Shown in pieces: positions 42,001-51,000 of a DNA stretch of 64,000 nucleotides. The position numbers are program-made. Position 1 is the first letter of the stretch. Every line of letters starts with the position of its first letter. This stretch comes from Spirochaetia bacterium (lineage in GTDB: Bacteria; Spirochaetota; Spirochaetia; DSM-2461): assembly GCA_963666985.2 (NCBI GenBank), contig CAXXIA010000002.1, forward strand, positions 2,784,001 through 2,848,000. The letters run 5' to 3'.

Positions 42001-45000
42001 ACTTTCCTTAAAGCGTTCGGCCCGCCGGTGGAAATCCCAATGGCGATTATTTCCGGAGGAGCCGGTCCCCTTTTCGGGGTTAGTTTGGGCCAGCCGTCCG
42101 ATATGATTTTTCGCTCGGAAACAGCCGCCGGCGGTGCCTCCGCCGGAGTTCGCTTTCGGGATTCGATTTTTGTCGGAGCTCCCGTTTTTTTTGCCTTGGT
42201 TTTTCGGTAGGTGCTGCCGAAAGCTTTTACCATCTCGATGAGCTGACTTGCGGTTTCTTTGTTTCTGTCCGGAGTTTCTCCGGACGGTTTGGTAATAAAG
42301 TCGGCGGCGCCGAGTGAGAGGGCCTTCATGGTTACCGAGGCTCCTTTTTTTGCCACCGCCGAAAGGATGATAACAGGAACGTCCCAGCCGTTTTCTTTGC
42401 GTTTTTCTAAAAACCCGATGCCGTCCAGTTCCGGCATTTCCAAATCAAGGACAATAACGTCGGGCCGCAGGTTCTCGGTTTTGCGGAGGGCAAATCTCCC
42501 GTTCATTGCGACATCCGCGACTTCTATCTCTTCGTCCGATTCAAGCATTCGCCGGATGAGATTGCGCATCAAAGCCGAGTCGTCGACGATTAAGACAGAA
42601 ACGGGATCCATCCGACCTCCTTATTTAATTACGCCTTTTCCGTAAATACAGGCCCAATCGGTTTTAACGAATTCGAATTTCGTTTCCATTCCGAACAGTG
42701 ATTCGGAATGCCCGATGAACAGAAAGGAGTGAGGCGCCATGGCGTTCCAGAAATGATCGATGACATTTTTCTGAGCGGCTTCGTCGAAGTAGATGAGAAC
42801 ATTGCGACAGAATATGATATCCAGATTCTTTAGGCCAGTGTCGAATTTCAGGTTGTGATAATCGAATTTAATAATTTTCTTGAGGGAATCTTTGATCCGG
42901 TATCCGTCGTCAACCGGATCGAAGTACTTTTTCAGGTAGTTCTCCGGTATACCGGTAATCCGTGAAGCGGGATAGAATCCCTCCTTGGCTTTCATTAAAG
43001 ATTTCAGACTCAGGTCCGAAGCTATAACCTCGATGGTCCAATCCGACGGAAGATACTCGCTGAGAACCATCGCGTTTGTATACGGTTCTTCTCCGGTTGA
43101 GCATCCGGCACTCCAGATGCGGATGATTTTTGATCCCGAGGCCGACTTCAGTTTCTTTAAATCCGGAATAACATAGTTAATGAAGGTATCGTAATGAGCC
43201 TGGTTCCGAAAAAAACGAGTCAGGTTTGTCGTAATGGCGTCCAGGAAGTTCTTTGTTTCTTCTCGATCTTTTTTGAGGAGGTCCAGATAGTCGGAAGGAG
43301 AGAAACCGTCCATGTTTCTCAGTCTTTCCTTAAGACGGCTCTCCAAGATGGATCTGTTGGATTCGGAAAAATGGATGCCGCTCTCGGAATAAATGTAATC
43401 CCGCATATTCTGAAACACTGCATCGCTTAAAAAATCGGACATATTTAATTCATCCTATTATGTATTATTAAAGTCTAGGTTGGCCTTATAAGGGTGTCAA
43501 CAACATCTGATGTTTCCGGGAAATTATGCCCGATACGCCGAGAAAAGAGTCCTGTTTTACGGTATCGATGCGATATAATTTCAGTTGATGTCCTCATTAC
43601 GAAATATCTATAACCTCCATGTCGTCGGAGTGGCTTTGACGGGACGCGATGGATTCCCGGTTGTTGTCTTTCAAGATACCGAGAGGGAGAATTTCCTTTC
43701 CCTGCCGACCGATCCTTTCGAAGCCGAGTTTATAATCCGCGAATTTATCGGTGAAGGGGAAGACTCCGCCGTGAGCTGGCTGGCCGAAATCATCGGCGGA
43801 AAATCTCTCCGGCAAGCCGTTCTGGAAATCGGCGCCGACAATCGCCCCGCAGTCCGCTTTTTCTTCGGCGGACTGAAAACACCCTCCGAAAGGGTTCTGC
43901 CTTTGGGTGAGGGGCTGGGTTTGTGCCGGAGGCTTCGTCTGCGGCTCTCCGCCGAATCGGATATATTTGAATTATTCCGCGACGAATTGGCTTTTCTCTG
44001 CAAGGGAAATGCGTTTCGAGAGAATTTTCTCTACTTGACCCCGCCGCTCTATGCGCCCACGATAGCCGTGGAATAATCGCTCGGGACTATGTTTTTCAGC
44101 TTAAGCCCGCGCGGATATCACTGAAGGAATATTGCTCACATGAAAATACAAGCTCTCTCCGGAAGGAATGTTTGGATTACCGGTGCCTCCTCCGGTATCG
44201 GACTTGAAATGTCTCTGCTGGCCGCGGAAGCCGGTGCTCATTTGACGTTGTTCTCATCAAGACGGGAAGCCCTGGCCGAAGCGGCCCGTCTTTGCCAGGT
44301 GAAAGGTGCCGCCTCGGTTTTTTTTGAAGCGGTTGATCTCTCCGAAGCCGAATCGGCCGCCGCCGTCTCCAGGAAGGTTTTGGAATCCTCCGGAACGCCG
44401 GACTATCTTATTCTGAATGCCGGAATTTCACAGCGCTCTCCGGCCGCTCTGACGGACATGGCGGTGGTTCGGAAGATTATGAATCTGAATTTTTTCGCTG
44501 CCGTCGCCATGACCCGGGAAGTTCTTCCGTCCATGGCGGAAAAAGGTTTCGGGCGAATCGGCGTTACCAGCAGTCTAACGGGTGTTTTCGGATATCCTCT
44601 GCGCTCGGCGTATGCGGCCAGCAAGCACGCCCTGCACGGGTATTTCGAATCCGTTGCCCTGGAATACGCTTCGTCGGGGATCAAAACAACCTTGGCGGTT
44701 TTAGGTCCGATCAACACACCGATCAGTCTGAATTCTCTTACCGGAGACGGCGGCCGGCACGGAAAAATGGACGCGAATCAGGAGAAGGGCATGGATGCCC
44801 GGATCTGCGCCGAAAAATATTGGAACGCCGTTATCCGGGGCCGCTGGGAAACGGTTATCGGCGGATTTAAAACGATCATGCTGTTCTTTTACCGAAATCT
44901 GCCCTTTCTTTATCGATTTATCGGAAAGAGAATTAGCCCCACCGGAAACCGACGCCCTTGAGTAAGCGGTATTCTTAAGGGGGGCGAATTTCAGATTCGC

Positions 45001-48000: not shown

Positions 48001-51000
48001 TATCGATTCGCCGATTGGCTGCCCATTCGGAGAATCCTTGAGGGATCGGCCGCGCCGGTGACCTACCGTTCCGAGGGATTGGGCGAAGAACTCGGGCTTA
48101 AAAATCTTTGGATAACCTTTAACGGCTGGTGGCCGGAAAAGGGTGCCGGCATGCAAACGGGAACGTTTAAGGAATGCGAGGCCTACAGCGTCTGTGCCCG
48201 AATGAGCGAAGACTTCGGGAAAATCCTTGTCGTGGCGTCGGCCGGGAATACGGCCCGGGCATTCGCCCGCGTCTGCTCGGACAATCACATACCTCTGCTT
48301 CTCTTTGTTCCCGAGGATAATTTAAACGCCATGTGGTTCCATACGCCTCTTCATGACTGCGTGAAATTGATTTCTCCCGAGTCCGGAGGCGATTACTTCG
48401 ATGCCATACATATGTCGAACATGGCGGTTGCCGGAAGCGGCCGCTTCATCGCCGAAGGAGGCGTGAAGAATGTGGCCCGCCGGGACGGTATGGGAACTAC
48501 GGTTCTTTCGGCGGCAACAACGATAGGCCGAATCCCCGACTTTTATTTTCAGGCGGTCGGCAGCGGTACGGGCGCCATCGCGGCCTGGGAGGCGGCAATC
48601 CGTTTGGAGGCCGACGGAAGTTACGGCCCGAATCGAATGAAGCTCATGGTAAGTCAGAACGCTCCCTTTGTTCCCATGCGGGACAGTTGGAAGGCCGACT
48701 CACGGGAATTCTTGATTGCCGATGATGATGCGGCGCGATCTCAAGTGGCCGAGGTGAATGCCAAGGTTCTTACCAACCGCCGTCCTCCCTGGAGCATTCC
48801 GGGCGGACTCTATGATGCCTTAAAGGCCGCCGGCGGAGAGGTTTTTGGGGCTTCCAACGAGGAAGCTTCCCGGGCCGCCGAACGGTTTTTACAGCTGGAA
48901 GGGAACGATATCAGTCCGGCCGCGGCCGTCGCGGTTGCGTCTTTATTTCAAGCGGTTAAGGAGAAATCCGTTTCCTCCGAGGACTGTGTGATGCTCAATA
49001 TCACAGGCGGCGGCATGGAGCGGTTCAAGTCCGAAAATGAAATTCATATCGCCGAGCCCTCGGCCGTTTTGAAGCTTGATGCTTCGGATGATGAAATCGT
49101 AAAAGTTTCGGAGAGCCTTTTTCCGTAAGAGGCTGCCGGCCTAACACTGCCGGTAATAACGATTTTCCGGCGGACTCAAGGAGTCCGGTATATATACGGC
49201 GGTTTTGGAAAGCCGCTTCAGTTTAAGGAGAATAACAATATGGCGGATATTTTTGACAAATGCGCAACCGATGAAGGGTATTTCGGCCGTTTCCGCGCCG
49301 CCGGAGACCGTTTTTTCACCCTTCCGGTTATAGACGATCTTCCCGGTCCCCGGATGAAGTACCAGGGCCAGGAAAACATCATGTGGTCGGTGAACAACTA
49401 CATTGGTCTGGCAAACGATCCGGATATCAAAGCGGCGGCTCTGGAGGCCACCGAATACTGGTCGGTGAGTTCCCCCATGGGATCGCGCATGATGAGCGGA
49501 ACCACCAGTGAGCATCTGGCCTTGGAAAAATCTCTGGCCGAACTTGCCCAGAAGGAAGATGCCTTCCTTTTTAACTACGGCTACATGGGCGTTATCGGCA
49601 CCGTGGTGTCCTTAACCGGTCCGGACGACACCCTCATCGTCGATAAATTGGCTCATGCCTGTATCGTCGACGCGGCCTTCAGCGCCAAAGGATCGAACGC
49701 CGGCAAGCCCAATGTCCGTTTCTTCCGGCATAACGACATGCACGATTTGGAATCGGTGCTGAAGATGGTTAATAAGGACCGCAAGGGCGGCGTGATGATT
49801 CTTTCCGAAGGCGTATACGGCATGACCGGCGACCTTGCGGATTTGAAGGGCATCACCGCTTTGGCGCGGCAGTACGACGCCCGAGTGTTCATTGACGACG
49901 CCCACGGCATCGGCGTACTGGGAGAAAATGGACGGGGAACCGCCGATCATCTGGGCGTTCAGGATGAAATCGATATCTATTTCGGTACTTTCGCCAAAAC
50001 CTTCGCTTCCATCGGCGGCTTTTCGGCCACCACCAAACAGGTACGCGACTGGATTGCCTACAACGCCCGCACCCAGGTTTTCGCCAAGGCGCTGCCTATG
50101 CCTTACGTGAAGTCCCTTCAGGTGGCCCTGACGAAAGTGATGAATGACGATTTTCGCCGGAAGCTGATGTGGGAGCGTTCCAACCAACTGAAAAACGGAC
50201 TTCGCGAGTTGGGGTATCACATCGGTACAGGTGATTCACCTATCTGTGCGGTCTTTACACCCGTCGGCGACAACCTCGAGGATGTTGGCATGGGTATGCT
50301 TAAATACCTGCGTGACCATAACATCTTCTGCACAGGTGTTGTGTGGCCGGTTATTCCTCCGGGACTGGTTATGTTCAGGATGATCCCCACCACCGCCCAT
50401 TCCGAGGAAGACGTGGCCCGTACCGTCGAAGTGTTTAAAAGCATGCGGGACGATCTGAAGATTCAGTTCCCCTTAAACGACGACCTTGTAAAACGTATCG
50501 GCAAAATATTCAGAGACTAGAAGGTCTAATTCGTAAAGAAAACAAGAGAGTACCCGCTGTTCGGCGCTGCCGAACAGCTGTTTATCGATGTCTCGTGAGA
50601 GTGTAACGGAAGCGGATTCGGATCTAGGGTCGTACCGCAGCTGAGCGAGGAACGATTTCGGCACAATTCTTTTTGTTTTCACGAATTAGACCGAAGGACG
50701 AGGAGCGTGAGAGGGATATCCAAGCTTGATTGAGTATCCCCGAACCGACGATGGCCTCCGCTCAGCGAAGCTCGCTTTCAAGTCAAATTATATAAAAAGC
50801 ACAAAAGGGCTCGGTATCACCGGGTCCTTTTTCGTTATCTGGGAACGGTCCGCTTTACGCTGGTGTGAGAGCTGAGAGGAGCGGCTCATCTTGTTTTTAC
50901 ATTCCCGGGCATCTAAAAAGCCTTATGCTGGGATTCGGCTTTAAGCCCGTCCATTATTAATTTGATTGGTATTTTGCGCAGGAGCCTACTTTGCTCTTGA

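Follow-up and report, generated by a model that had tools for sequence, protein, structure and literature searches.

The locus lies in a window of 64,000 nucleotides from the genome of a free-living spirochaete and comprises five open reading frames on the + strand, found again where the earlier note had placed them (Table 1). The genes for CysD, CysN with a fused CysC domain, cysteate synthase and cysteate C-fatty acyltransferase (CFAT) form a single run, in which cysD and cysNC overlap by TAATG and cysNC and the synthase gene by ATGA, with 111 nt between the synthase gene and CFAT. The SDR gene ends 170 nt before cysD. A 33-kb contig from a second study (run X3) spans 43000–49122 and 49223–50525 unbroken, with 69 and 94 letter differences, respectively; the gene order is therefore not an assembly artefact, and that of the four genes is kept in 17/20 wider loci of the taxonomic order. 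An Rfam search of 43000–52000 returned zero matches. The terminator-like hairpin 3' of CFAT is weak evidence, because the scan found 19 sites compared with 11.3 ± 3.2 in shuffled sequence, and we infer the transcript limits of the locus.

Table 1. Features of the locus and two unlinked genes discussed in the text.
Feature	Position	Strand	Basis
SDR, candidate 3-ketocapnine reductase (CapC-like)	44140-44961	+	ORF call; PF00106 145.7 bits
Promoter-like element 5' of cysD: TTCCCN, 17 nt, TA[A/C]ACT	45003-45031	+	conserved spacing
CysD, ATP sulfurylase small subunit with CC...CxxC	45132-46013	+	ORF call; NF003587, PDB 1zun
cysNC: CysN GTPase subunit with fused degenerate APS-kinase domain	46013-47839	+	ORF call; TIGR02034, TIGR00455
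Cysteate synthase, archaeal (threonine-synthase-like) type	47836-49128	+	ORF call; TIGR03844, PDB 9k3c
Cysteate C-fatty acyltransferase, CFAT/SulA/CapB family	49240-50520	+	ORF call; structure matches and pocket residues
Terminator-like hairpin 3' of CFAT	50556-50578	+	10-pair stem, top-ranked in terminator scan
APS reductase, iron-sulfur, unlinked to the operon here	G000:C1:1162297-1163472		TIGR02055 250, cut-off 235.3
GNAT-like gene	C2:1967217-1968440		related to gene heading a Flavobacteriaceae capnine cluster, 23%, 9e-20

CysD scores 339.6 on NF003587 (cut-off 195) and 234 on TIGR02039 (cut-off 396.6), and matches PDB 1zun (E 4.8e-53). Its CC...CxxC motif, present in 26/26 aligned rows, resembles the iron-sulfur motif of APS reductases and is missing from a second CysD of the same genome. 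Four-cysteine CysD as its own APS reductase was set aside, because the C-terminal ECGLH cysteine is absent and the genome has true APS reductases. The cysNC product reaches 327 vs 336 on TIGR02034, and its C-terminal CysC domain 33 vs a cut-off of 138.7 on TIGR00455. In this domain the DGD motif is gone in 25/25 rows and the GxxxxGK[ST] loop is left in 2/25, the P-loop being lost in the present gene, which thus lacks the intact APS-kinase domain of a bifunctional CysNC. Given a kinase domain that looks dead from its motifs, the operon would yield APS, with CysD and CysN carrying sulfate that far and no further. A canonical second cysD-cysNC pair with intact kinase adjoins a sulfotransferase gene.

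Assimilatory sulfate reduction uses CysD, CysN, CysC, CysH and sulfite reductase. The present system has ATP sulfurylase and iron-sulfur APS reductase in common with it, but differs in the degenerate kinase domain, the four-cysteine CysD and the sirohaem sulfite reductase (PF01077), which was found by profile search in 0/26 synthase-bearing genomes. The same search was positive in 11/14 control genomes and in one of the 38 genomes of the order, which has neither synthase nor CFAT. Sulfite would be freed from APS by the iron-sulfur APS reductase, which passes the TIGR02055 cut-off; it is unlinked here and linked in genus g3, where it lies immediately 3' of CFAT in 9/9 intact loci, as in two loci of other families. 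APS reductases with CC, CxxC and ECG[LI]H occur in 25/26 synthase-bearing genomes. Because APS reductase gives sulfite and sirohaem sulfite reductase is absent from the 26 synthase genomes, sulfate activation looks dedicated to cysteate, and the locus would be a neat example of sulfate activation reserved for one sulfonate product in organisms devoid of sulfite reductase.

Cysteate synthases of the TIGR03844 type belong to the coenzyme M route of methanogens. The present one scores 461.7 against the curated equivalog cut-off of 324.9, as reported before, and matches PDB 9k3c ("Cysteate synthase") with E 4.6e-166, but here its partner is a condensing enzyme of the lipid type. Its occurrence above cut-off in 26/38 genomes of the order was likewise reproduced. 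The name capA given to this gene is incorrect: the enzyme is of the archaeal type, and the CapA model NF053679 has no match to the gene, its best score anywhere in the genome (225, cut-off 600) belonging to a different one. In this respect the locus departs from the CapA/CapB/CapC pathway and agrees with the Alistipes/Odoribacter route, where an archaeal-type synthase, not CapA, is used (PMC10191378). The synthase would add sulfite to O-phosphoserine to form cysteate; serC is present in the genome.

The CFAT product matches the CFAT structures 28eh (1.1e-102) and 7u7h (3.4e-99) ahead of SPT (7.4e-61), in agreement with the earlier figures, and the match is full-length, N-terminal arm included. 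It is the counterpart of CapB in the CapA/CapB/CapC pathway of Capnocytophaga ochracea and Ornithobacterium rhinotracheale (28eh; PMC13692747; PMC10191378): of the 18 PLP and cysteate pocket positions that PMC13692747 lists, 15 are identical when the alignment is inspected by eye, with columns rechecked, including Lys280 (= Lys283). With SulA of Alistipes finegoldii (7u7h) it shares the CFAT fold and this marker lysine, which separates SulA from Spt (PMC9304779). The claim that the CFAT-specific lysine is kept extends to 113/114 aligned CFAT-type rows, the remaining row being cut by a contig end, and to 120/120 database hits; the SPT-like protein of the same genome has Ala there, the residue that SPT carries where CFATs have Lys280/281. 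CFAT would condense cysteate with acyl-ACP to 3-ketocapnine. CFAT specificity is not fixed by a handful of pocket residues (PMC13692747).

It is highly improbable that this oxoamine synthase takes serine or another amino acid, as SPT-like enzymes do, with cysteate serving another purpose and the linkage incidental. The three pocket differences from COCFAT (A82S, F113Y, M277V) include the SPT-type residue Ser82, and Gly-Ser at 81-82 had been held against CFAT, but the three occur in 17/48, 22/48 and 4/48 Bacteroidota-side CFAT rows, respectively, which rules out Gly-Ser as a contrary sign. Another gene of the genome is SPT-like (3a2b 2e-121 vs CFAT 1.9e-63), and the CFAT gene was therefore rejected as the organism's SPT. 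The synthase is not adjacent to CFAT in 15/19 loci of the phylum sample, yet it was located elsewhere in the genome in 5/5 unlinked cases examined, and it adjoins CFAT in spirochaetes and in 4/4 WOR-3-type loci.

The upstream SDR is, on sequence grounds, a fair candidate for CapC, and an SDR, probably this one, would reduce 3-ketocapnine to the capnine-type base. It is related to the SDR of Flavobacteriaceae clusters, being the genome's top match to the CFAT-adjoining SDR of two such loci (best of 19 and of 23; 168 vs 94 bits with L066, and 181 vs 99 with L091). Known KCRs are diverse and scattered (PMC11211663). Among 13 other genomes of the same genus, the gene is cluster-linked in six, unlinked in three and not found in four, and is thus more conserved than the earlier note allowed for the wider loci. 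At E<=1e-30 none was found in G009 (98% complete, CFAT present), and G002 (95% complete) has the SDR and neither CFAT nor synthase. The promoter-like element between SDR and cysD keeps equal spacing in 8/10 aligned upstream regions, including two of the three that have no upstream SDR, and scores under the consensus-scan threshold. cysD appears to be transcribed from a promoter of its own, and the SDR probably lies outside the cysD transcript, contrary to the proposal of one operon with the SDR.

A VOC-fold gene, absent from the earlier account, tracks the pathway: it occurs in 26/26 synthase genomes and 0/8 genomes of genera g5 and g6, and in G003 both CFAT and VOC are fragments. The protein has two domains and a confident predicted model (pLDDT 93.6), which matched only general VOC proteins (13–16% identity); it falls in no NCBIfam family, and Atlas gives only unnamed VOC clusters. 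Travelling with CFAT, it would act at some step of the pathway. SDR and VOC partners are also found in Flavobacteriaceae capnine clusters, and the two proteins are testable candidates for pathway steps. No N-acyltransferase tracking the pathway was found in a check of one candidate, the GNAT-like gene, which occurs in 16/38 genomes of the order (0/4 in g4, 3/11 in g3, 4/4 in CFAT-less g5) and was ruled out because this distribution does not follow CFAT. The pathway had been called complete; with APS reductase unlinked here, no N-acyltransferase tracking it and a ketoreductase at candidate level, that description is not supported.

Synthase and CFAT occur together in 25/38 genomes of the order and in 17/23 high-quality ones, related genomes in these counts being non-independent observations. 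Conservation across most of the order is not supported in that wording: both genes occur in three of six genera of an order with one family. The pathway is indeed present in Bacteroidota, but is not limited to them and this order, as WOR-3-type bacteria and other spirochaete lineages also carry it. In a quick tree, the CFAT-type branch (54 rows) stands apart from SPT/KBL-type enzymes (13 outgroup rows) with SH-aLRT 100, and the Bacteroidota-side clade leaves out the spirochaete rows (SH-aLRT 100 and 99). The 48 Bacteroidota-side rows are a biased sample, because they were gathered through peptide patterns of the present CFAT, and the experimentally tested CFATs, which are not tree rows, are assigned to that clade by match scores. 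The two solved CFATs score 336–347 bits to the present CFAT vs 548–637 for the best match of two Bacteroidota-clade members. Recent import of CFAT from Bacteroidales was rejected by quick trees and an AU test (p-AU 3e-58); a single origin for all spirochaete CFATs was neither shown nor rejected (p-AU 0.5). The gene set is old and conserved in the spirochaete lineage, and the CFAT/synthase branch of spirochaetes and WOR-3-type bacteria is apparently inherited. Compared with SulA of Alistipes, the present CFAT (~335 bits) belongs to a separate branch and is linked to cysD-cysNC and, in relatives, to APS reductase.

From the observed genes, motifs, linkage, co-occurrence and tree we infer the catalytic steps and the end product: the operon probably (about 0.55) turns sulfate into a sulfonated long-chain base, with a conditional or non-classical end product. 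Of the earlier sulfonolipid interpretation, the coupling of synthase and CFAT to sulfate activation, kept in much of the order, is supported; completeness, the SDR within the operon and the statement that there are no lipid data are not supported as worded. A published table exists for Oceanispirochaeta M1 and M2, which probably carry CFAT to judge from a truncated NCBI label. Table S46 lists no capnine lipid, Table S45 lists no hydroxy fatty acid, and the lipid classes of M1 total 100% without capnines (PMC11129491). In the same study capnines are a major class in Lutibacter B1 (PMC11129491), and in Labilibaculum they make up 10–33% by a related method. The negative Table S46 fits the conditional or non-classical part of the preferred reading: the end product would not be an abundant constitutive sulfobacin-type lipid, but condition-dependent, low-level, or in a form outside routine lipid tables. 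Against this reading, the negatives of S45 and S46 could also mean no long-chain base at all, and the two solved CFATs are much closer to the Bacteroidota clade, to which the spirochaete CFATs do not belong.

That a complete classical pathway makes N-acyl capnines of the sulfobacin type in abundance, as Bacteroidota do, and that the negative table stems from unlisted peaks or gene-less strains, appears unlikely. Its enzymology would be identical to that of the preferred reading, the GNAT-like gene has its relative in a capnine cluster, CFAT in M1 and M2 is taken from the NCBI label, and the supplement of their paper makes no mention of the searched sulfate-activation gene names; but the class totals of M1 contrast with the capnine levels of Lutibacter B1 and Labilibaculum, and the GNAT-like gene does not keep company with CFAT. 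It is quite doubtful that CFAT joins cysteate to a short or unusual acyl donor, giving a small aminosulfonate or a glycan or protein substituent instead of a membrane lipid, with VOC and SDR tailoring the product. This would account for the negative lipid table, and agrees with a CFAT lineage outside the assayed clade, the lack of a tracking N-acyltransferase and a second spirochaete lineage in which the neighbours of CFAT are instead a membrane protein and a gene resembling ketopantoate reductase (TIGR00745 171.5 vs 141.35). However, six of six assayed CFATs produce long-chain bases (PMC13692747), the CFAT match includes the N-terminal arm, and the SDR and VOC partners are those of Flavobacteriaceae capnine clusters.

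There is also a slim chance that an outer-membrane glycolipid or lipoglycan, missed by routine extraction or outside the mass range, has the capnine base as its anchor or anionic part, with VOC as a sulfonolipid-synthesis enzyme common to Bacteroidota and WOR-3. In that case the chemistry of sulfonolipids would be old, present in several phyla and independent of gliding. Beside this stands the absence of lipid A: LpxC was found in 0/38 genomes of the order, and LpxB was not found in the present genome.

According to a 2023 review, sulfonolipid synthesis is apparently limited to Bacteroidota (PMC10191378). A separate branch in spirochaetes and WOR-3-type bacteria would extend the set of producers and make capnine lipids less useful as Bacteroidota markers. 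That the published lipid table does not match the genes poses a sharp question, and cultured Oceanispirochaeta exist. The idea that Table S46 lists a misread sulfonolipid as "unknown phospho-sugar lipid" was rejected, as no one-sulfur formula fits all five of its ions within 1.5 mmu; two of the ions fit N3O9S at -1.3 and -1.4 mmu.

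All five genes that an earlier note had placed here, as a complete capnine operon preceded by a short-chain dehydrogenase/reductase (SDR) gene, were recovered as plus-strand ORFs at the expected positions (see table), in a genome of 4.86 Mb that is 93.1% complete (window G000:C2:2784001-2848000). Overlapping stop and start codons join the middle three genes, cysD, cysNC and cysteate synthase. The gene order is taken as real because a single contig of an independent sequencing run (X3) covers the cluster (43000-49122 and 49223-50525); beyond that it diverges from the window. G+C is 52-55% across 44-50 kb and drops to 39-42% in 50-60 kb, and since the X3 contig continues unlike the window there, the low-GC block behind the cysteate C-fatty acyltransferase (CFAT) gene looks like a variable insert. 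This block (50700-60000, 39-42%), outside X3 coverage, carries a peptide ABC transporter and a LysR-like regulator, and is a portion of the 22.6-kb stretch separating CFAT from the gene for a VOC-fold protein. A promoter-like element ahead of cysD is kept in 8 of 10 upstream regions whether or not the SDR gene is present; the SDR is therefore probably outside the main transcript.

Features of the cluster and of its distant VOC partner (small positions count within the window)
Feature	Position	Strand	Remark
SDR	44140-44961	+	ORF
cysD	45132-46013	+	ORF
cysNC	46013-47839	+	ORF
cysteate synthase	47836-49128	+	ORF
CFAT	49240-50520	+	ORF
two-domain VOC protein (L205)	G000:C2:2857139-2858218	minus	22.6 kb downstream of CFAT, past the insert, outside the window

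In structure matches, the CFAT protein is closest to CFAT 28eh (1.1e-102) and SulA 7u7h (3.4e-99), followed by the related serine-using enzyme SPT (7.4e-61). By-eye reading of the structure-match alignment found 15 of the 18 pocket residues named in PMC13692747 identical; the differences A82S, F113Y, and M277V are seen in 17, 22, and 4 of 48 Bacteroidota-side rows. The SulA marker lysine (named in PMC9304779) is Lys283 here and is present in 113/114 aligned rows and 120/120 database hits. A separate SPT-like gene of the same genome (C2:2052163-2053446), used as internal control for this lysine, has Ala at the position and matches 3a2b at 2e-121 and CFAT at 1.9e-63. A CFAT working on another amino-acid substrate is judged highly improbable. 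The SPT-like gene lies between two SDRs (G000:C2:2051314-2054267, locus L117), scores 512 with NF047600 (cut-off 640), and occurs in 5 of the 38 order genomes (E<=1e-90). With its flanking SDRs it is a possible sphingolipid start in a genome that also has CFAT; sphingolipids and sulfonolipids are possibly mutually exclusive according to PMC10191378.

CFAT trees of 113 rows (without rows <340 aa) and 67 rows (a subsample plus 13 outgroup rows), both quick IQ-TREE runs with SH-aLRT support only, separate Bacteroidota-side, main spirochaete, second spirochaete, WOR-3, and Legionellaceae branches with support of 98-100 and one value of 94 (the order). Inside the order the tree matches the genera. 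Grouping the spirochaetes with the sampled Bacteroidales in one clade was rejected (p-AU 3e-58, 39 rows). The solved CFATs reach at best 548 and 637 bits against two Bacteroidota-branch members and 347 against this protein. Because the spirochaete rows branch apart and the solved enzymes resemble the Bacteroidota branch far more, the functional call extends past the branch with tested members and draws on gene context for support. The chemistry is judged to be already known and the system not of a new kind; what sets it apart is an old, distinct lineage whose operon is laid out in its own way.

The cysteate synthase scores 461.7 with TIGR03844 (cut-off 324.9) and reaches 4.6e-166 against PDB 9k3c ("Cysteate synthase"). 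Since a profile search with NF053679, the model for the CBS-like synthase CapA, gave no match, the enzyme is of archaeal type and not CapA; the archaeal type is used by Alistipes and Odoribacter (PMC10191378). The kinase part of CysNC is degenerate (TIGR00455 33 against a cut-off of 138.7; DGD motif lost in 25/25 aligned rows; canonical P-loop kept in 2/25, this genome not among them), so that sulfate activation by the operon should, judging from sequence, yield APS rather than PAPS. An unlinked APS reductase with CC, CxxC, and ECGLH motifs (C1:1162297-1163472; TIGR02055 250 vs. 235.3) has counterparts in the order, the type being present in 25 of 26 synthase-positive genomes; the exception, G001, is 74% complete. 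A reductase of this type directly follows CFAT in 9/9 intact loci of genus g3 and in two loci of other families. The reductase of the genome under study (L116) has an extra N-terminal region with CxxC, glutaredoxin-like by reading and joined via a low-complexity linker; g3 reductases (~240 aa) are without it. Of the 38 order genomes, only G024 gave a hit for the sirohaem sulfite-reductase domain PF01077 (controls positive in 11/14); this genome has cysH-cysD-cysN and is missing both synthase and CFAT. The CC...CxxC motif of CysD, kept in 26/26 rows, resembles the 4Fe-4S motif of APS reductases; PDB 1zun is without it, and CysD of G024, a genome missing the lipid genes, has it.

The genome also has serC and a transporter of the SulP family. 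A second, canonical cysD-cysNC with intact kinase (C1:553268-556053) adjoins a sulfotransferase; glycosyltransferase-like genes are also among its neighbours (L115, G000:C1:553268-557150), and it probably delivers the PAPS with which a surface glycan is sulfated. Sulfate activation in the window would be dedicated to cysteate synthesis only. In the proposed route, CysD/CysN would convert sulfate to APS, APS reductase would form sulfite, the synthase would combine sulfite with O-phosphoserine to cysteate, CFAT would join cysteate and acyl-ACP to 3-ketocapnine, and the SDR would convert this to a capnine-type base. The probability that a long-chain sulfonated base is made is put at about three in four.

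Contrary to the earlier statement that lipid data are lacking, intact polar lipids have been published for Oceanispirochaeta M1 and M2 (PMC11129491). In Tables S45-S48 hexose lipids, PC, PG, an unknown phospho-sugar lipid, and cardiolipins account for 100%; the parts of this source available list no capnine lipid among the intact polar lipids and no hydroxy fatty acids in the core lipids. Capnines are major in Lutibacter B1 in the same study, and amount to 10-33% in Labilibaculum (PMC12927429). The database CFAT P0044 (NCBI label, as far as shown, "MULTISPECIES ... [unclassified Ocean") carries the marker lysine, and its median identity to g3 proteins is 86%; NCBI entries under unclassified Oceanispirochaeta are "sp.", M1, and M2 only. 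From label and taxon list we infer that M1 and M2 carry CFAT. Abundant classical sulfonolipids, as in the two Bacteroidota above, are unlikely, and a non-lipid product of the CFAT pathway is improbable; slightly favoured is a sulfonated base whose end product is minor, non-classical, or made only conditionally. The M1/M2 media contain sulfide, yeast extract, and tryptone (PMC11129491), which, as a guess, might repress the operon.

The order comprises 38 genomes of one family and six genera. CFAT orthologues (at least 59% identity) occur in 27 (3 partial: G003, G027, G031) and the synthase scores above cut-off in 26. Conservation across most of the order, as claimed earlier, cannot be upheld in that wording: the pair occurs in 25/38 genomes (17/23 high-quality ones) and in three of six genera, with 0/8 genomes in g5 and g6. 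Of 20 wider loci, 17 keep the four-gene order; one of the remaining three stops at a contig end, one is decayed, and one is missing the middle genes. CFAT and VOC are both fragments in G003 (C72; L130, L233), and G027 (C236; L133) has a split CFAT directly adjoined by an SDR; these loci represent pathway loss in progress. Among 400 sampled other Spirochaetota genomes, 19 have CFAT (E<=1e-85), with the synthase adjacent in 4; of the other 15, 5/5 tested carry it elsewhere. The synthase also adjoins CFAT in 10 of 16 further spirochaete loci, many of them labelled Alkalispirochaeta, and in 4/4 WOR-3/Stahlbacteria loci; two Legionellaceae loci had none within the stretch examined (all from a set of 80 named loci). 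Given these loci, the pathway is neither order-wide nor confined to this order. In the second spirochaete lineage (L191, L193, L195, L201, L203), CFAT lies back to back with a ketopantoate-reductase-like gene and a ~456-aa membrane protein, and synthase and VOC lie elsewhere. The Legionellaceae MAGs (L057, L060) have CFAT-type genes with the marker lysine, followed by a putative fatty-acyl ligase.

Papers that the earlier note described as not naming spirochaetes indeed lack "spiroch" in main text and searchable supplements (PMC11525784, seven of its eight files; PMC11211663; PMC13692747), their phylum lists being figures outside text search; the surveys in the first two are restricted to human microbiomes. 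Among the papers listed in literature searches, no title or abstract linked sulfonolipid or capnine with spirochaetes, nor did the available parts of PMC11052126, PMC1586193, and PMC3463246. Prior mention of the pathway is possible.

Flavobacteriaceae loci L066 and L091 have SDR and VOC genes upstream of CFAT, and the window's SDR is by a wide margin the genome's best match to their SDRs. Conservation of this SDR goes beyond what the earlier note had given: among 13 other same-genus genomes it sits at the cluster in 6, lies away from it in 3, and was not found in 4 (incomplete). An unlinked 33-40% relative occurs in 13/15 g3/g4 genomes; none was found in g5/g6 (0/8). The two-domain VOC protein, whose predicted fold is clear, adjoins CFAT in many spirochaete loci, 4/4 WOR-3-type, and 6/48 Bacteroidota-side loci. 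It occurs in 28/38 order genomes (26/26 synthase-positive; 0/8 in g5/g6) and tracks CFAT in spirochaetes, WOR-3-type bacteria, and some Bacteroidota. A GNAT-like gene was rejected as N-acylation enzyme, since it does not track the pathway. L066 (Lutibacter MAG, 3074-9215) is a compact run of GNAT-like, SDR, CBS-like synthase, SDR, VOC, and CFAT genes, and its GNAT-like gene is put forward as an N-acyltransferase candidate for the sulfonolipids of Flavobacteriaceae. In G017, G019, G020, G034, G036, and G037, including CFAT-less g5, a GNAT-like gene and a divergent oxoamine synthase gene lie ~7-9 kb apart, possibly as another amino-lipid or ceramide locus.
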